This document shows, one piece after another, positions 1-15,982 of a stretch of 15,982 nt of DNA. Both the position numbers and the translations under genes were made by a program. Under the pieces are notes generated by a model. That model was not told the origin of the DNA and did not search any database. It worked only from the letters and a program-made list of their open reading frames with translations. The stretch's first letter is position 1. Each line of letters starts with the position of its first letter. Source of the DNA: a virus (taxonomy: Duplodnaviria > Heunggongvirae > Uroviricota > Caudoviricetes); IMG/VR virus record IMGVR_UViG_2737471818_000008; one strand, given 5' to 3'.

Positions 1-1254
1 ATGCTGGAACAAATGGGCATTGCCGCGAAGCAAGCCTCGTATAAATTAGCGCAACTCTCCAGCCGCGAAAAAAATCGCGTGCTGGAAAAAATCGCCGATG
101 AACTGGAAGCACAAAGCGAAATCATCCTCAACGCTAACGCCCAGGATGTTGCTGACGCGCGTGCCAATGGCCTTGGCGAAGCGATGCTTGACCGTCTGGC
201 ACTGACGCCCGCACGGCTGAAAGGCATTGCCGATGATGTGCGCCAGGTGTGTAACCTCGCCGATCCGGTGGGGCAGGTAATCGATGGCAGCGTACTGGAC
301 AGCGGCCTGCGTCTTGAGCGTCGTCGCGTACCGCTGGGGGTTATTGGCGTGATTTATGAAGCGCGCCCGAACGTGACGGTTGATGTCGCTTCGCTGTGCC
401 TGAAAACCGGTAATGCGGTGATCCTGCGCGGTGGCAAAGAAACGTGTCGCACTAACGCTGCAACGGTGGCGGTGATTCAGGACGCCCTGAAATCCTGCGG
501 CTTACCGGCGGGTGCCGTGCAGGCGATTGATAATCCTGACCGTGCGCTGGTCAGTGAAATGCTGCGTATGGATAAATACATCGACATGCTGATCCCGCGT
601 GGTGGCGCTGGTTTGCATAAACTGTGCCGTGAACAGTCGACAATCCCGGTGATCACAGGTGGTATAGGCGTATGCCATATTTACGTTGATGAAAGTGTAG
701 AGATCGCTGAAGCATTAAAAGTGATCGTCAACGCGAAAACTCAGCGTCCGAGCACATGTAATACGGTTGAAACGTTGCTGGTGAATAAAAACATCGCCGA
801 TAGCTTCCTGCCCGCATTAAGCAAACAAATGGCGGAAAGCGGCGTGACATTACACGCAGATGCAGCTGCACTGGCGCAGTTGCAGACAGGCCCTGCGAAG
901 GTGGTTGCTGTTAAAGCCGAAGAGTATGACGATGAGTTTCTGTCATTAGATTTGAACGTCAAAATCGTCAGCGATCTTGACGATGCCATCGCCCATATTC
1001 GTGAACACGGCACACAACACTCCGATGCGATCTTGACCCGCGATATGCGCAACGCCCAGCGTTTTGTTAACGAAGTGGATTCGTCCGCTGTTTACGTTAA
1101 CGCCTCTACGCGTTTTACCGACGGCGGCCAGTTTGGTCTGGGTGCGGAAGTGGCGGTAAGCACACAAAAACTCCACGCGCGTGGCCCAATGGGGCTGGAA
1201 GCACTGACCACTTACAAGTGGATCGGCATTGGTGATTACACCATTCGTGCGTAA
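1..1254 (+). CDS. proA: gamma-glutamyl phosphate reductase (glutamate-5-semialdehyde dehydrogenase), proline biosynthesis
   Basis: Full-length 417-aa ORF; I recognise the sequence as enterobacterial ProA over its whole length (aldehyde dehydrogenase fold, same length as E. coli ProA). GC-rich core-genome composition. Identity is from memory, not a search. Confidence 0.95.
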
Positions 1255-1368
1255 ATAAAACCGGGTGATGCAAAAGTAGCCATTTGATTCACAAGGCCAT
1301 TGACGCATCGCCCGGTTAGTTTTAACCTTGTCCACCGTGATTCACGTTCGTGAACATGTCCTTTCAGG

Positions 1369-1444
1369 GCCGATATAGCTCAGTTGGTAGAGCAGCGCAT
1401 TCGTAATGCGAAGGTCGTAGGTTCGACTCCTATTATCGGCACCA
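1369..1444 (+). tRNA. thrW: tRNA-Thr (anticodon CGU), thrW-like; probable integration target of the downstream element
   Basis: 76-nt cloverleaf read directly: acceptor stem GCCGATA/TATCGGC, D-arm GCTC-AGTTGGTA-GAGC, anticodon stem GCGCA/TGCGA with loop TTCGTAA (anticodon CGT), T-arm GTAGG-TTCGACT-CCTAT, 3' ACCA. Lies directly downstream of proA as thrW does in E. coli. Confidence 0.9.
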
Positions 1445-2825: not shown

Positions 2826-2953
2826 CTGGTTGCGTATACAGTAGTAGACTTTGAGCGACGAAAGAAAAGGCTGTGTCTAGGGTCGCTCCCGAAAATCCGT
2901 ACACCTCGACGGACTGGTACAGCCACTACAGTAGAGGACGCTGAGGTGTGCGT

Positions 2954-9439: not shown

Positions 9440-9473
9440 TACGAAATTTATAAGTTGAAACTTAAAAGTAGAC

Positions 9474-9806
9474 GGTTGGTAGACAGATACACTTAACCCT
9501 CTACCAACCATCTACTAATTAATGTTTTGAATTATATAGGTATTTTTAATGTGGTAGAGAGGTGGACAGTTTATTTTATATTTCTAAACCACGGGGGTAT
9601 CTAAAAATAGATAGTTATGGGTTCATTTTTAAAATTTTTCTTTTAACTATCTACACTGTCTACCATTTAGTAAAAATCATTAATTATCAATGTATTAATA
9701 CGGTAGAGAGTTGGTAGACAGTTTGCAGATTGTTTTTTGTTATGTGTGAACAACATTAAATAAATCAATCAATTATATCGATAGACAGTTGGTAGACAGT
9801 TGTAAC
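9474..9806. repeat. Iteron array, probable replication origin: about 8-9 copies of GGTAGA(C/G)AG(TT) in both orientations in an AT-rich segment
   Basis: Seen directly: GGTTGGTAGACAG (9474-9486) with inverted partner CTACCAACCA (9501-9510); GTGGTAGAGAGGTGGACAGTT (9551-9571); ACTGTCTACCA (9655-9665, inverted); CGGTAGAGAGTTGGTAGACAGTT (9701-9723); tandem TAGACAGTTGGTAGACAGTT (9782-9801). Directly downstream of the primase gene. Confidence 0.65.
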
Positions 9807-9807
9807 G

Positions 9808-10350
9808 ATGGGGCAAAGCATGACTAAGCTGACCATTAACAGAAAACCGAAAGGCATTTACGGCACGCCGCAGAAAACGACGCAGGCGGCACAGGAGCAG
9901 GATAAAACCACGTCGGCGCATAAAGTGATGCCCGGTAACCAGAAAGCGCAGCAGAAGCCCACAGGGGCGACACCGTGGCGGCATATGACCAAGCGCCAGC
10001 GCAAAAACCGCAGGCGCATTAACCGCCTCACTGAGTTGTGGCCTGAATTATTCAGCCGGGAAGCACCGAAGCCGCTTAAGGTGGGGATATTCGACGACCT
10101 GATGCAGGATCTCGCCGTCAGGGGGCTGGCATTCGGTCTAGGGGCATTGCGTGCGACGCTGGCATCTTATGCACAGTGTCCGCGCTATTACCGCGCCTTA
10201 ATGGCTGGTGGGGTACGCTACGACCTGAAAGGCCAGCCGTGCGGCGAGGTGACACCACAGGAACAACAGGACGCAGAAACGCGGCTGGTGGCGCTGAATG
10301 AGAAGCGCAAACGTCAGCGCCGGGTAGCAAAGGAGAAAACAGGCGCATGA
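9808..10350 (+). CDS. ProQ/FinO-domain RNA-binding protein (RNA chaperone family)
   Basis: The segment ELFSREAPKPLKVGIFDDLMQDL...YAQCPRYYRALMAGGVRYDLKGQPCGEVT aligns by eye with the E. coli ProQ N-terminal FinO-like domain (PLKIGIFQDL...RVDLDGNPCGEL). Basic, low-complexity N-terminus. The start may be ATG 9808 or ATG 9820. Confidence 0.8.
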   Translation: MGQSMTKLTINRKPKGIYGTPQKTTQAAQEQDKTTSAHKVMPGNQKAQQKPTGATPWRHMTKRQRKNRRRINRLTELWPELFSREAPKPLKVGIFDDLMQDLAVRGLAFGLGALRATLASYAQCPRYYRALMAGGVRYDLKGQPCGEVTPQEQQDAETRLVALNEKRKRQRRVAKEKTGA

Positions 10351-11009: not shown

Positions 11010-11048
11010 TGGTCGTGATTTTTTGGTGAAAAAAGAGAGGTGGTAAAA

Positions 11049-11627
11049 ATGCCAGCAAGCAAAGAAGATTTGCGATTAAAACTGATGGAGGTGGTTAACG
11101 CTCTGTCAGAGTCGCAGGGCAGCACTCCGCAGGAGATTATCGAAATTCTGAATGCGATCCCCGCACAGGATTTCATAAAAGAGGATAACGCTAATCAAAA
11201 CATCGTCGCGTCAGTCGAAGATGAATCCTCACTGGCAGAAGCCCAGGCTAAAGCAGATTCCGCATACAGCAATATGGGCCGTCGCGCTCCAGCCCCGTTT
11301 GCTGGTGAAAAGTCGATGGATTACCGCAAGCGTGCATTAATTGGTGCACAGAAGCTGGCTAAAAAATTCAGTGATGTGGATATTCGTTCCGTTTCAGATT
11401 CTGCAACGCTGGCGGTGCTGGAAGATCAGATTTACCAGGCTGCAAAAGACAGTGTTCAGTGGGCTGTGGAAAATACGCCGGGCTATTTGCGTAAAACCGT
11501 AAGAATGGATGAAGCCGGACGGCGGATTACTGAATATCAGGGGGATCCGAATAACTGGCTTAGTGCTTTCAAAATCCCTCCCCGTCGCCTGGTCAAAATT
11601 AACGTTGCAAGCCTCGCGGGGGCATGA
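11049..11627 (+). CDS. Hypothetical acidic protein (192 aa); candidate morphogenesis/packaging-interference protein
   Basis: ATG at 11049 with GAGAGG upstream (the ORF track start 11040 is probably too early). Normal coding composition. No similarity to P4 Psu, Delta or Sid recognised. Confidence 0.65.
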   Translation: MPASKEDLRLKLMEVVNALSESQGSTPQEIIEILNAIPAQDFIKEDNANQNIVASVEDESSLAEAQAKADSAYSNMGRRAPAPFAGEKSMDYRKRALIGAQKLAKKFSDVDIRSVSDSATLAVLEDQIYQAAKDSVQWAVENTPGYLRKTVRMDEAGRRITEYQGDPNNWLSAFKIPPRRLVKINVASLAGA

Positions 11628-11691: not shown

Positions 11692-12363
11692 ATGCTTTTA
11701 ACAGAAATTGAGGCGGCGAAGCAGATTCGGGACGGACAGCTACCGTCGCCTTATCAGTTTTCCAACATGTGGCTGGTTAACCTGCGTATCACAGGAACCG
11801 GAATGGCCTACCGCGCAGAAGAAAAAGAATTTGTCTGGCGTTCACCGCAAACTTATCTCAATCCGCAGTTCCTGGAACGTTGCGCCGGAGTACCCGTAAT
11901 TATCGACCATCCCGAAAGCAAAACCCTTGAAGACGTGGGCGAACGGTCGCGCATTATTGGCACCGTCATGTTGCCGTATATTCGCGGTGACGAGGTGTGG
12001 GGCGTATGCCGGATTTACGGGCAGGAAATCATCGATTACATCCAGAAAGCACGGGGGGAGGTATCCACCAGTCCGTCGGTTGTGTTTTGTGGTGCGTCCG
12101 GTGGGGCTGAAGTTCCTGATGTAATGGGCGAGGACAATTTTTTTATTGAGGGTACGCCATTTCTTATCGATCACGTTGCACTCGTACCGTTGGGCGTATG
12201 GGATAAGGATGGGAAACCATCGGGTGTGGAGGTAACAACGCCGACAGCAGAAGAGCAGCTTGCCGGAATGGTCCGGGACGTTATTGATGCGGCCTGCAAG
12301 CCAGCCCTGGAAAAACTGGAAGAAATATCCGGGCGGCTGGCTCAACTGGAAAAAGAAGGGTGA
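11692..12363 (+). CDS. Hypothetical protein (223 aa); weak prohead-protease-like motifs
   Basis: Clean ORF. Contains IIDHPES, FCGASGGAE and LIDHVAL, which could correspond to a His/Ser protease arrangement. Speculative. Confidence 0.65.
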   Translation: MLLTEIEAAKQIRDGQLPSPYQFSNMWLVNLRITGTGMAYRAEEKEFVWRSPQTYLNPQFLERCAGVPVIIDHPESKTLEDVGERSRIIGTVMLPYIRGDEVWGVCRIYGQEIIDYIQKARGEVSTSPSVVFCGASGGAEVPDVMGEDNFFIEGTPFLIDHVALVPLGVWDKDGKPSGVEVTTPTAEEQLAGMVRDVIDAACKPALEKLEEISGRLAQLEKEG

Positions 12364-12901: not shown

Positions 12902-13195
12902 AAAAAGTGTCAAGTTGAGCAGCTTGCCGGGTTGACACTTTACACTCTGAACGCGAAAAAGTGTCAACCTCGCTGTAAGCCCCGCCGTTACTGGCCTTGC
13001 GCCAGATTTACCACGTCAAAAAGCCGAAAAAATCGCGAAAAGTGTCAAGTTGACATGCTTAGAAATGCCAGGGATGGTTAAGTTTTGTTAAGGTTTTTCG
13101 TGAAAAAGTGTCAAGTGTGTCAACCTACGATATTAAGATTTATTAAGGTCTTAAGCCGGAAAGTGTCAACCAGCCCCTAAGATTTCCTAAGGTGT
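12902..13195. repeat. Two-motif repeat array: at least 6 copies of (A)AAGTGTCAA(C/G) interleaved with 3 copies of TAAG(A/T)TTT-NN-TAAGGT; candidate packaging (cos/pac) recognition or operator region
   Basis: Seen directly: GTGTCAAG (12907-12914) with inverted GTTGACAC (12931-12938); GTGTCAAC (12961-12968); palindrome GTGTCAAGTTGACA (13042-13055); tandem GTGTCAAG-TGTGTCAAC (13108-13124); GTGTCAAC (13163-13170). Interleaved TTAAGTTTTGTTAAGGT (13079-13095), TTAAGATTTATTAAGGT (13132-13148), CTAAGATTTCCTAAGGT (13177-13193). Confidence 0.6.
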
Positions 13196-13200
13196 AAATC

Positions 13201-13383
13201 ATGACCATCACCGAAGCCGATATGCTGGAGATGATCCGCAGCATTGCCGGAATCAAACAACCAGCAAGCAAAATTAACAGGTGTTCAGCGCCTGTTTCCG
13301 TTGTGCTGCAACAGGAATGCCACCAGCGGCGGGAAAACGAAAAGGCGTACCAATGGACGAAGCCAAACAAGTTACGGCGTTAA
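13201..13383 (+). CDS. Hypothetical small protein (60 aa)
   Basis: ATG with AAGGTG 7 nt upstream, directly after the repeat array; followed by a hairpin. Confidence 0.4.
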   Translation: MTITEADMLEMIRSIAGIKQPASKINRCSAPVSVVLQQECHQRRENEKAYQWTKPNKLRR

Positions 13384-14233: not shown

Positions 14234-15982
14234 GTGAAAATATCTTTTTTTGGCGTAAATAACTTTAGGACAATATCAGGTGGCATTGGTAATAATAGAA
14301 TAATATTTAAAGATAGCAATACGCTTTTCATTTACGGGGCAAACAATGCTGGAAAATCAACTTATTTAAAAGCATATATGTTTTTTTACAGTAATGAAAA
14401 ACCTATCATTGATGATTTCTTTAAACGAGACGACAATAATTCTATTGAGTTTGAATTAGAAGTTCAACTTGATGACTTGGATAAAGAAAGAATAGAAGCC
14501 AAAGCACCGAAGCAAAAGGAAAGTTATAAGAAGTATTTAAATAATGATTTTATTAGAATTAAGAAAGTATGGAGTAAAAATGGAACAAGAATAGAGGATA
14601 AAAATTATACTTATGATTATAGTAAAGGAGATAGCGGCGAGTATGATGAAGTTGGATATGCAACGATTGGTTTGCATCAGGTCTTCCAATCTTGTTTGCC
14701 AAAACCTGTATTTATAAAGGCTATGCCAACAGAGGAAGAAGCTAAGAAGATTCTTAATGAAATCCTAAAGATGATGGCTGAAAATACACTTAAAACATCT
14801 GATCTTGATGAATTAAAAGCAGCTCAGAATAAAATAAAAGAATTACAAGACAAAATGTATGATCCAGAATTGATTGAGACCTATCAGAATTCAGTTAACG
14901 GATACTTTAACAAGATATTCGGTGATACTGCTATATGCTTCAAAGATCAAAAAGATAGGGTTGTTTGGACGGAGAATAAGCTTGGCAGAGATTTTGAAAT
15001 TGAGTTTATGAAAAAAAATAGCCAAGGGGAGTTTGATGGCAATATCCCTTCAAGTTATAGCAGTGTAGGTCATGGAACTATTAGGACTGCAATATTTACA
15101 TTATTATTGATGAGAGATGTAGCAGAGCGTTTTGAAAGAAGGCTTGGACGTAAGGATTACATGGTTCTGTTTGAGGAGCCTGAGCTATTTCTCTATCCTA
15201 GAATGGTGAAGGAACTTCGTGAATTGATTTATCAGGTGAGCACTGAAGACCTTCCATATCAAGTACTTTGTGCCTCACATTCATCTTCCATGATAGATCT
15301 TTCAAAGCCTAAATCTTCGATAATACGATTAGTTAATAATTCTACTGGAACTAAATCATATCAAATTAATGATCAATTTTTGAAGGATGCAAAAGGCATT
15401 GCTACAAATGCTGAACTTAAACAAGAAATGTATGAAGTTTTGAGGTTTAACCCTTATATTTGTGAATCATTCTACGCTGATGAGGTGCTTCTGATTGAGG
15501 GGCCAACAGAAGAAATAATATGTAGAGCTTTTTTACAAGAAACCCCATCAGATAAATCTATATTCGTATTGAACTGTGGTACGGTTAATAACATTCCTTT
15601 TTATCAAAAAATCTTCTCAAGGTTTAATATAAAATATCATGTGATCTGTGATACAGATAAAGCAGAAATAGTTACCGTAGATCAATCTGGCAATGCAGAT
15701 TTTGATTCTGGAATACAGAAAACAATTTCAGAACAGTATAGGAATGATTGTACTGCAATGAATGGTAATATAGGACTACTTCGAACTCATAACATTACAT
15801 TTGAACCTGCTCATCAGGATGTTAGTATTCCTGACTTTTTGAGATTTGTTGATTGCGGTGATAGAAGCAAACCATTTAATGCAAACTTGTACTGGAAGGA
15901 TATTTTAAGGCCAAATATATCACATCAAGATATAAATAAAGTGCCTATAATTAAGTATTTGAATGAAATAATAGCACATTAA
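14234..15982 (+). CDS. OLD-family ATP-dependent nuclease (N-terminal ABC-type ATPase plus C-terminal TOPRIM domain); class 1 OLD or Gabija GajA-like; candidate anti-phage defence protein
   Basis: 582-aa ORF with GTG start and AAGGAAA upstream, in strongly AT-rich DNA. Motifs read directly: Walker A GANNAGKST (near 14336-14362), Walker B MVLFEEPELF (near 15161-15190), H-loop-like ASHS, TOPRIM glutamate LLIEGPTEE (near 15491-15517) and DxD ICDTDK (near 15644-15661). Size matches P2 Old and GajA. Confidence 0.85.
   Translation: MKISFFGVNNFRTISGGIGNNRIIFKDSNTLFIYGANNAGKSTYLKAYMFFYSNEKPIIDDFFKRDDNNSIEFELEVQLDDLDKERIEAKAPKQKESYKKYLNNDFIRIKKVWSKNGTRIEDKNYTYDYSKGDSGEYDEVGYATIGLHQVFQSCLPKPVFIKAMPTEEEAKKILNEILKMMAENTLKTSDLDELKAAQNKIKELQDKMYDPELIETYQNSVNGYFNKIFGDTAICFKDQKDRVVWTENKLGRDFEIEFMKKNSQGEFDGNIPSSYSSVGHGTIRTAIFTLLLMRDVAERFERRLGRKDYMVLFEEPELFLYPRMVKELRELIYQVSTEDLPYQVLCASHSSSMIDLSKPKSSIIRLVNNSTGTKSYQINDQFLKDAKGIATNAELKQEMYEVLRFNPYICESFYADEVLLIEGPTEEIICRAFLQETPSDKSIFVLNCGTVNNIPFYQKIFSRFNIKYHVICDTDKAEIVTVDQSGNADFDSGIQKTISEQYRNDCTAMNGNIGLLRTHNITFEPAHQDVSIPDFLRFVDCGDRSKPFNANLYWKDILRPNISHQDINKVPIIKYLNEIIAH

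Follow-up and report, generated by a model that had tools for sequence, protein, structure and literature searches.

A box array behind the gene of a small-terminase-related protein is a candidate packaging recognition site in satellite islands of Enterobacterales

What is the function of an array of short repeats that stands between the last conserved gene of a phage satellite and its variable defence cargo? Such an array lies at positions 12902-13195 of the stretch of DNA analysed here (15,982 nt in its whole length, hereafter the window), directly after the gene of a helix-turn-helix (HTH) protein. An earlier note on this DNA read it as a packaging recognition site of the cos/pac kind, with an operator array or a partition-type centromere as alternatives. 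Here we weigh these readings, and others, against the content of the array, its conservation, the protein encoded beside it and the surrounding island.

The window is a provirus contig of IMG/VR, and from position 1399 onward it shows no difference from an island in the chromosome of E. coli EC11. The island insertion site is tRNA-Thr(CGT), beside proA. The island starts with a P4-type integrase gene and an int-alpA RNA and continues with a small HTH gene, an AntA/B gene, an Icd-like gene and the gene of a D5-type primase-helicase. After the primase-helicase comes an iteron-containing, AT-rich field (9440-9808), followed by ProQ/FinO and PerC genes, a head-protease-like gene (DUF2213/phrog_6216) in two fragments, the gene of the 175-aa HTH protein (HTH175), the array, a 60-aa ORF and, last in order, the gene of an OLD-family AAA+TOPRIM nuclease. 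This layout is that of a phage satellite related to P4 and PICIs. The field at 9440-9808 contains iterons with GGTAGACAG repeats, has a GC content of 17-30% and lies directly after the primase gene, as crr does in P4; it is a much better replication origin candidate than the array.

The array itself marks a boundary within the island, between the last conserved gene and the variable defence slot. In several close relatives the similarity to the window ends at 13125 or 13171, which is to say at boxes of the array. The cargo behind it changes: the window has the OLD nuclease there, strain GCM74-1-1 an AAA-ATPase/DUF4435 pair (PARIS-like) and Raoultella Abi_2. Defence hotspots directly adjoin cos in P4-like satellites and P2-like phages (PMC9122126). 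By its position, the array occupies the slot of the P4 cos site, at the end of the core genes and before the defence-cargo hotspot.

The repeats are strongly enriched. GTGTCAAS occurs seven times in the window against 0.8 copies expected, with all seven inside 12907-13170, and none of 200 shuffles contained seven copies; the earlier note had spoken of six or more, and the count agrees. The longer form of the box, AAAGTGTCAA, has six exact copies in the window, and the second motif, TAAGWTTTNNTAAGGT, has three against 0.01 expected (Table 1). The perfect palindrome and the tandem doublet described previously were both located, as GTGTCAAGTTGACA at 13042-13055 and GTGTCAAGTGTGTCAAC at 13108-13124. 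The threefold alternation of boxes with the second motif, also described previously, is found in the right half of the array (13039-13193) but not in the left half (12902-12970), where a forward, an inverted and a forward box follow one another and the second motif is absent. Box spacings are irregular (54, 81, 66, 9 and 46 bp), and an inverted copy and a palindrome make the orientation mixed. A unique, GC-rich centre, which the earlier note passed over, separates the two halves. No terminator was found in the array, and searches at gathering or permissive thresholds assigned it to no Rfam family of structured RNA. The AAGGTG of the last second-motif copy doubles as an RBS-like sequence for the 60-aa ORF.

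Table 1. Positions of the boxes, motifs and flanking genes of the array, in window coordinates.
Feature	Position	Strand	Sequence or description
HTH175 gene, 175 aa	12370..12897	+	winged HTH (residues 1-44), disordered linker, C-terminal alpha/beta domain
Box 1	12904..12914	+	AAAGTGTCAAG
Box 2, inverted	12930..12941	-	GGTTGACACTTT; forms inverted pairs with boxes 1 and 3
Box 3	12958..12968	+	AAAGTGTCAAC
Central GC-rich element, single copy	12973..13003	+	CTGTAAGCCCCGCCGTTACTGGCCTTGCGCC; consensus AAGCCGCGCCATTACTGGCTTT
Box 4, palindromic	13039..13055	.	AAAGTGTCAAGTTGACA
Second motif, copy 1	13079..13094	+	TAAGTTTTGTTAAGGT; two TAAG half-sites 10 bp apart
Boxes 5 and 6, doublet	13105..13124	+	AAAGTGTCAAGTGTGTCAAC
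Second motif, copy 2	13134..13154	+	TAAGATTTATTAAGGT, plus a third TTAAG
Box 7	13160..13170	+	AAAGTGTCAAC
Second motif, copy 3	13178..13193	+	TAAGATTTCCTAAGGT
60-aa ORF	13201..13383	+	first ORF of the variable zone; in some relatives only

The protein encoded beside the array belongs to a family that is limited to Enterobacterales and carries no name in the source databases. Its first 42 residues are almost invariant, and the remainder diverges to 35% identity. The best profile match of HTH175 is phrog_57, terminase small subunit (1.4e-7), and the 186-aa paralog of a sister family matches the same profile over 76 residues (1.5e-8). Residues 3-40 of HTH175 are 45% identical (E 3e-8) to the N-terminus of a prophage ORF in the terS position, and another variant of this prophage ORF shares 44% identity with the paralog across 68 residues (E 4e-13). 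Because of this identity to ORFs in the terS position, the DNA-binding domain of HTH175 is regarded as derived from, or of common ancestry with, a small-terminase domain of lambdoid phages. A profile comparison with lambda Nu1 gave a weak, in-register N-terminal match (E 0.0014, probability 17%).

For the C-terminal domain (residues 60-172) we obtained no informative match and found no known oligomerisation domain of TerS or Rpp proteins, and PDB searches returned no sequence similarity between HTH175 and RppC. The HTH fold by itself does not identify a terminase, because it is common to excisionases and to Cox/BldC, RdfS and AlpA-type regulators that coat repeat arrays. No Rep-family domain was found in HTH175. 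TBLASTN detected neither HTH175 nor its paralog in phages, and a single weak match to HTH175 was present among 72,556 plasmids. With no deposited phage and hardly any plasmid encoding it, the protein is island-specific.

Of 5,426 complete E. coli genomes, at least 167 carry the array region, and the array is also conserved in Rouxiella, Raoultella, Pantoea, Serratia and Erwinia. Boxes, central element and second-motif variants persist across genera, the last of these in the arrays of Serratia, Erwinia, Pantoea and Raoultella, while spacers differ; the most widely conserved part is the central element. A comparison of the repeats with phages had also been proposed in the earlier note, and no match was obtained when the array region was compared by BLASTN with 50,697 phage records.

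Boxes and protein were each used alone as the query for further loci. When 13 loci of other species were retrieved via the HTH175 protein alone, eight contained a cluster of at least three GTGTCAA boxes. The cluster lies directly 3' of the gene in E. ruysiae, Rouxiella, Raoultella and Pantoea and is pushed away from it by inserted genes in Serratia oryzae, Erwinia and S. aquatilis, the insert in S. aquatilis being an ABC-3C defence system. Conversely, 67 loci were retrieved via the box pattern alone and the gene was sought within 1.5 kb. An HTH N-domain gene was present in 49 of the 53 loci with at least four boxes and missing from nine of the 14 with fewer, counts that overstate independence, as near-identical islands of E. 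coli make up much of the set.

The pairing of boxes and HTH domain takes three forms. In the window's family, the boxes follow the HTH175 gene. In the sister family they precede the gene of the 186-aa paralog, whose N-domain is 44% identical. In low-GC elements (L027 and L041), AAAGTGTCAA boxes flank an AT-rich tract and follow a DUF3987 helicase gene, and the C-terminus of the helicase contains a similar HTH (VTRSTLYNW). Because the pairing holds in all three arrangements, it is likely that the HTH domain is the reader of the boxes. The boxes track HTH175 and not the type of primase.

The Rpp PICIs are a known case of satellites that bring along a packaging address for themselves and read it with a TerS-like domain. 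An Rpp protein joins a DNA-binding domain that mimics TerS to a helical domain for dimerisation. The cos-rpp module was described in E. coli cos-type PICIs, with RppA, RppB and RppC of EcCICFT073 as examples (PMC6739421, PMC9026076). In these islands, cosQ and cosN of the helper are kept, and cosB and its reader are replaced.

The sister family is where a cos-like setting of the boxes can be recognised. Upstream of the paralog gene, the order is GGGTCCT, CACG/GGCATTGCGCGCCG, a first box, more boxes and then the gene. The distance from the start of GGGTCCT to CACG/GGCATTGCGCGCCG is exactly 30 nt (23 intervening bases), and its lambda counterpart, to TACG/GGGCGGCGACCT, is 31 nt. Lambda has GGGTCCT at the equivalent point, and we take it to be the lambda cosQ heptamer, reportedly of this sequence. 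The first TTGACA(C/G) box lies at bp 49 or 58 from CACG/GGCATTGCGCGCCG, with the TerS-like gene downstream; R3 occupies bp 50-65 in lambda and bp 48-60 in N15 (Murialdo and Feiss; PMC9026076). By this geometry, the sister-family boxes occupy the cosB position of a cos site like that of lambda or the Rpp PICIs.

Its cosQ and cosN copy those of a group of prophages. The sequence upstream of the paralog arrays matched more than 120 prophage contigs, most of them 20-60 kb among the matches listed. In all eight prophages examined, this sequence is followed by an ORF of 185-203 aa and then by one of 659-709 aa, which in the two loci scanned with Pfam is a large terminase of gpA type (GpA_ATPase and GpA_nuclease). 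An ORF of about 545 aa is next in five of the eight and is a lambda-family portal in the two Pfam-scanned loci. Because the large terminase and portal ORFs come after it, the 185-203-aa ORF stands in the terS position. The prophages carry the same GGGTCCT...GGCATTGCGCGCC and have repeats of their own, GGTAACA or GTCCCA, in the cosB position; the cosN of this prophage group is GGCATTGCGCGC. The sister family thus keeps the cosQ and cosN of the helper and swaps only cosB and its reader, which is the logic of the Rpp islands.

In the window's own family, we searched for the corresponding cut site. The cosQ/cosN nearly identical to that of a helper, which Rpp modules and the sister family have about 100 bp upstream of the gene, is absent in the window. 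Lambda cosN (GGGCGGCGACCT), the nicking sequence that yields cohesive ends of 12 nt, has no match near the array at up to three mismatches, and the 19-nt cohesive end of P2 and P4, GGCGAGGCGGGGAAAGCAC, which belongs to a shared block of about 55 bp, has none in the window at the same tolerance. The helper-type cosN ACGGGCATTGCGCGCCGCG is absent from the window and from its relatives, and the cosQ sequence GGGTCCY occurs neither in the array of the window nor in those of 11 relatives. One lead is ACTGGCCTTGCGC at 12990, which agrees with the core of the helper cosN in 11 of 13 letters, where chance would give about 0.02 such matches per kb. With it aligned as cosN the next box falls at bp 50, but the match is confined to the window and lost even in E. 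ruysiae. The array also lies 3' of its gene, unlike the order of cos-terS and cos-rpp. If the array is a packaging site, it would therefore act either by a headful (pac) mechanism or together with an unrecognised cut site.

Taking these observations together, we give about an even chance to the reading of the array as a cosB-like or pac-like recognition site for the TerS-derived protein of the island. The N-terminal winged HTH of HTH175 would bind the GTGTCAA(C/G) boxes, and the complex would mark island DNA for the large terminase of the helper during helper-phage growth. HTH175 may also interact with the TerS or TerL of the helper, and the island would be packaged instead of the helper or alongside it. 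The cut may be of the headful/pac type, or may fall at an unrecognised cos in or near the central GC-rich element.

What the earlier claim of a cos/pac site retains in its favour is the cosB position of the boxes in the sister family and a slot like that of P4 cos, to which we add the enrichment of both motifs, their conservation across genera, the co-occurrence of boxes and HTH domain, the TerS ancestry of the reader, the restriction of the protein to islands and the presence of a better origin elsewhere. Against it stand the lack of a recognisable cosN or cosQ in the window or its relatives, the order of gene and then array, and the fact that no phage record shares the array or HTH175, with no helper candidate found for the window's family. 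The central element, moreover, is an origin-core sequence in P1-type and lambdoid replicons, low-GC helicase elements have the same boxes in an origin-like layout, the HTH fold is not specific to terminases and the C-terminal domain is without a known TerS or Rpp match.

Could the boxes instead be operators? HTH175 would then be a repressor or activator of the Cox, BldC or AlpA kind, acting on its own operon, on the downstream ORF or on the cargo; in a variant of this reading, HTH175 is only a TerS mimic that blocks helper packaging, and the boxes are autoregulatory. Each box contains a -35-like hexamer, TTGACA, and the fold that HTH175 has in common with repeat-coating regulators would suit such a role. 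Profiles of excisionases and regulators (phrog_575 and phrog_66) also match the protein, and one of its homologs is labelled 'MerR family transcriptional regulator' in RefSeq. The sister-family boxes lie just upstream of the gene start, as autoregulated operators would, and the array of the window lies directly before ORF 13201 and the cargo. We nevertheless consider the operator reading, in either form, unlikely. No sigma-70-like promoter was found on either strand of the array. There is also no common regulated target, because different islands carry unrelated cargo behind the array and, in S. aquatilis, cargo lies between gene and array. An operator would further leave unexplained both the cosQ/cosN geometry of the sister family and the central element.

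The central element bears most directly on a possible role in replication. It recurs in unrelated elements, each time beside different short repeats, and is the sole part of the array common to phages. In P1 its homologue, alike at 19 of 27 positions, is the G+C-rich stretch of oriR, which according to the annotation has the five GATC 7-mers on one side and the RepA iterons on the other, and a P1-like E. coli plasmid has the same oriR order with a near-consensus copy. Lambdoid prophages carry a copy among iterons inside an O-like replication gene that adjoins a DnaB-like helicase gene, and in the phage-plasmid phiT5282EW the copy follows an AT-rich tract and GTGACAG repeats. Other contexts are of a different kind. 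In P2-like prophages of two lineages and in Yersinia phage vB_YenM_42.18, the element is found 150-320 bp beyond portal gene Q and adjoins cos-like sequences, and P4 has a degenerate copy 28 nt before the cos block that it shares with P2. One prophage carries a copy 25 nt from an att tRNA fragment, and Stx phages have a partial copy upstream of antB.

Several explanations of the element were tried and rejected. It has no coding capacity, since a hidden small ORF would meet stops in all frames and no frame is common to the contexts. An origin from a tRNA was set aside, as L110 has a mere tRNA fragment adjoining, and so was homology to P2 cos, with which the CCCCGCC heptamer alone is in common, a heptamer in whose place most relatives have GCCGCGCC. 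The consensus sites of IHF, Fis, LexA, SlmA, TyrR and sigma-54, compared with the element by eye, did not fit. A resemblance to a nic site of the ColE1/MOBQ type (TACTGG/CTT) was dropped, as there is no relaxase context and the element occurs in origins and cos regions. The range of contexts (origins, cos regions and an att arm) is reminiscent of an architectural site for a host factor.

Could the array be a replication cis element, either a second iteron-type origin or a copy-control site, with HTH175 as a stand-alone origin binder? The central element would act in it as in P1 oriR and the lambdoid origins, and the AT-rich TAAG repeats would open. In favour of such a role are the homology of the element to the P1 oriR stretch and its same placement in the P1-like plasmid, the copies among lambdoid iterons and in the iteron/AT-rich region of the phage-plasmid, and the L027 and L041 elements, whose boxes flank an AT-rich tract behind a helicase gene with a similar HTH. 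P4 also has two separated cis replication regions, ori and crr. However, the nearest DnaA box (TTWTNCACA) is 1.4 kb off, and the lowest GC content over 40 nt is 32-35% in the array (minimum 32.5%) versus 17-22% (minimum 17.5%) at 9440-9808. Irregularly spaced boxes of mixed orientation are not phased iterons, and neither the near-absence of HTH175 from plasmids nor the association of boxes with HTH175 rather than with a primase type fits an origin. The central element, for its part, is not origin-specific, because copies also adjoin cos in P2-like phages and in P4, as well as an att site. We therefore regard a replication function, and with it an origin-like action of the central element and TAAG repeats, as rather improbable.

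A more speculative possibility, to which we give a low probability, is that the array represents a new type of packaging-initiation site. A satellite protein that joins a lambdoid TerS DNA-binding domain to a new C-terminal domain would coat R-like boxes that flank a GC-rich element, with no cosN of the lambda or P2 type. The GC-rich element would be a module of general use that has so far escaped recognition, serving as a host-factor site or in a structural role and common, in the manner of an IHF site, to P1-type and lambdoid origins, P2/P4 cos regions and att arms.

The remaining readings fare much worse. A partition centromere for a plasmid state, as the earlier note had offered among its alternatives, with HTH175 acting like pSK1 Par, is very improbable, because the protein is virtually absent from plasmids; no ParA/ParM-type partner or partition ATPase was found among the scanned ORFs, and the array lies downstream of the gene. 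Less probable still is an arm of the att site with sites for HTH175 as an excisionase-like recombination directionality factor, a reading that we rejected, as such sites are expected within about 150 bp of the att core and, in the close relative GCM74-1-1, the att-core repeat TCCTATTATCGCACCATT (attR) lies 2.6 kb past the array with no att-core copy directly behind it, so that the island includes the cargo and the array cannot be an att arm; in the window at least 2.8 kb of cargo lie beyond it.

Returning to the packaging reading, the closest parallels are the Rpp PICIs. Both combine a small satellite protein that has a TerS-like winged HTH with an island-specific recognition sequence unlike the cosB of the helper, and in both the pair of protein and site comes after the ori region of the island. 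Known cos sites of Rpp PICIs have been reported without repeats; the island studied here differs in its multi-box array and in that HTH175 has no detectable sequence similarity to RppA-C. Lambda cosB (R3-I1-R2-R1, bound by gpNu1) likewise consists of several short sites for an N-terminal winged-HTH domain of a small terminase, with irregular spacing and mixed orientation. Lambda cosB is interrupted by I1 (IHF), and the array by the central element and the TAAG repeats. Unlike lambda cosB, the array has no adjoining cosN or cosQ and lies 3' of its gene, and HTH175 is not a complete TerS, as it has no recognisable lambda-like C-terminal region for TerL binding.

P4 and P2 share with the island a general plan in which the late or core genes end at a cis site and variable anti-phage cargo and then att/int follow; the gene order in P4 is psu, cos, cargo, int. 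They also have a copy of the central element near cos, degenerate in P4 and full in P2-like prophages. Unlike them, the island lacks the 19-nt cohesive end and has no sid, delta or psu, and P4, unlike the island, encodes no TerS-like protein. Sites of the pac type may be flanked by TerS boxes, as in pacL/pacC/pacR of SPP1 and in P1 pac. The array resembles these in that short repeats cluster to the left and right of a unique central segment, an architecture compatible with a headful site at which a defined first cut starts a series of headful cuts, but differs in that the terminase-linked relatives of HTH175 belong to cos-type (gpA) systems. With the core of P1 oriR, finally, it has in common a G+C-rich element abutting short repeats; DnaA boxes, GATC repeats, the regular 21-bp phasing of iterons and an initiator of the Rep family are all absent.

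Beyond what the Rpp PICIs have already established, the new parts appear to be a protein with no detectable relation to Rpp, its novel C-terminal domain and an explicit multi-box array. New as well are the two arrangements of the pair of reader and boxes, one with the cosQ/cosN of a helper (the sister family) and one without (the window), and the GC-rich element shared with other kinds of element.

The G+C-rich stretch of P1 oriR has reportedly been judged a spacer of critical length. The recurrence of one 22-bp GC-rich element in P1 oriR, lambdoid origins, the cos regions of P2 and P4 and the arrays described here makes that stretch look like more than a spacer. If the packaging reading is true, these islands would represent a second solution for redirecting helper packaging, in which a TerS-derived domain is placed on a different scaffold. 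A defined box sequence and a defined protein allow the direct design of binding and transfer experiments. The changing anti-phage cargo of the islands (OLD, PARIS-like, Abi and ABC-3C) sits immediately behind the array, and because of this position a packaging signal there would bear on the movement of defence genes between cells.

The GC-rich element AAGCCGCGCCATTACTGGCTTT, 22-27 bp in length, is common to the array of the window, where it forms the single-copy central element between the array halves, and to several unrelated element types. It is found in the core of the P1 oriR, in lambdoid O-gene origins, in one phage-plasmid and in one att arm, as well as in cos-proximal regions of P2-like prophages and, as a degenerate copy, of P4. 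In every case the element is flanked by short repeats that are specific to the element carrying it. Tandem duplication of the central element along with its flanking repeats was seen in two cases, a lambdoid origin and a small P4-type element.

In two P2-like prophages (L094 and L113), a cos-like G-rich block together with the central element is collinear with the P4 right end. Both features are located 3' of Q, read in the sense orientation, which is the opposite of the arrangement in P2 relative to the packaging genes. Separately, in a Pantoea stewartii island that encodes a homolog of HTH175, the HTH protein encoded before the array, the integrase gene directly adjoins a fragment of a P2-like portal (Q) gene. 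This satellite may have integrated in or beside a P2-like prophage.

The boxes of the array also occur in a different setting. Two low-GC elements encode a DUF3987 helicase with a C-terminal HTH (VTRSTLYNW), and directly 3' of its gene, AAAGTGTCAA boxes like those of the window array are located on both sides of a very AT-rich tract. This locus is an origin-like layout built with the same box. In the window itself, the stretch immediately 3' of the D5-type primase-helicase gene has a tract of 17-30% GC, and around it lie roughly eight GGTAGACAG-type repeats, which occur in either orientation. This field, which is placed like the crr of P4, is likely the replication origin of the island. An int-alpA RNA motif is found just 3' of the integrase gene.

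Similarity between islands ends at the boxes, with breakpoints at 13125 and 13171. The slot behind the array (in front of it in one case) holds anti-phage systems that differ from island to island, namely an OLD-family AAA+TOPRIM protein in the window, and elsewhere a PARIS-like AAA+DUF4435 pair, Abi_2 and ABC-3C (SMEK/MC6/DUF2326). Elsewhere in the window, two neighbouring ORFs correspond to different regions of a single 545-position PHROG profile, phrog_6216; the pair resembles a head-morphogenesis gene that has been split or rearranged. Unrelated genes replace this pair in some relatives. Identity between the window and EC11 (L001) begins at 1399, within tRNA-Thr (window 1-1398 compared). 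Upstream of this point EC11 has pinE and other genes in place of proA, and therefore the left island junction is rearranged in EC11.

Coordinates of the features compared between the window and other loci
Feature	Locus	Coordinates	Detail
AAGCCGCGCCATTACTGGCTTT element	window	12973-13003	
AAGCCGCGCCATTACTGGCTTT element	L120	17792-17830	P1 oriR core
AAGCCGCGCCATTACTGGCTTT element	L118	3500-3530	
AAGCCGCGCCATTACTGGCTTT element, two copies	L119	2910-2935 and 3005-3030	
AAGCCGCGCCATTACTGGCTTT element	L117	3006-3030	
AAGCCGCGCCATTACTGGCTTT element	L094	3207-3232	P2-like prophage
AAGCCGCGCCATTACTGGCTTT element	L121	11549-11577	
Tandem duplication	L119	2905-3035	lambdoid origin
Tandem duplication	L090	700-900	small P4-type element
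Cos-like G-rich block and central element	L094	2888-3340	
Cos-like G-rich block and central element	L113	5883-6300	
Integrase gene and Q fragment	L009	2517-3213	also L075
DUF3987 helicase/box region	L027	11640-12739	also L041
Repeat field	window	9440-9808	
int-alpA RNA motif	window	2870-2937	Rfam RF02996, 45.5 bits
Anti-phage cargo slot	window	14234-15982	
Anti-phage cargo slot	L015	21265-23221	
Anti-phage cargo slot	L007	8257-9255	
Anti-phage cargo slot	L011	7121-10054	
Upstream ORF	window	11040-11627	phrog_6216 C-terminal part
Downstream ORF, DUF2213/head-protease-like	window	11692-12363	phrog_6216 middle
Prophage-group cos	L126	1128-1170	
Prophage-group cos	L124	3567-3609	
Sister-family cos-like region	L052	7260-8141	also L073, L044, L076, L021, L069, L049, L081

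More than 120 prophage contigs (L124-L203; 20-60 kb for most of those listed) carry GGGTCCT followed, after 23 nt, by CACG|GGCATTGCGCGCCGCG. Directly 3' of this sequence, the TerS position is taken by a wHTH ORF in all eight loci examined, and an ORF of 659-709 aa is also present there. Pfam matches at two of the eight identify a TerL of the gpA type and a portal of the lambda family. The sequence is a lambda-like cos whose presumed cohesive end differs from that of lambda. The cosB position of these prophages is occupied by phage-specific repeats, GGTAACA or GTCCCA.

The sister satellites copy the cosQ/cosN of this prophage group. Their GTGTCAA/TTGACAC boxes are located at bp 49 or 58, and downstream of the boxes they encode their own TerS-like protein of 186 aa. 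While this protein has no detectable sequence relation to RppA-C, the strategy of the sister family is similar to that of Rpp.
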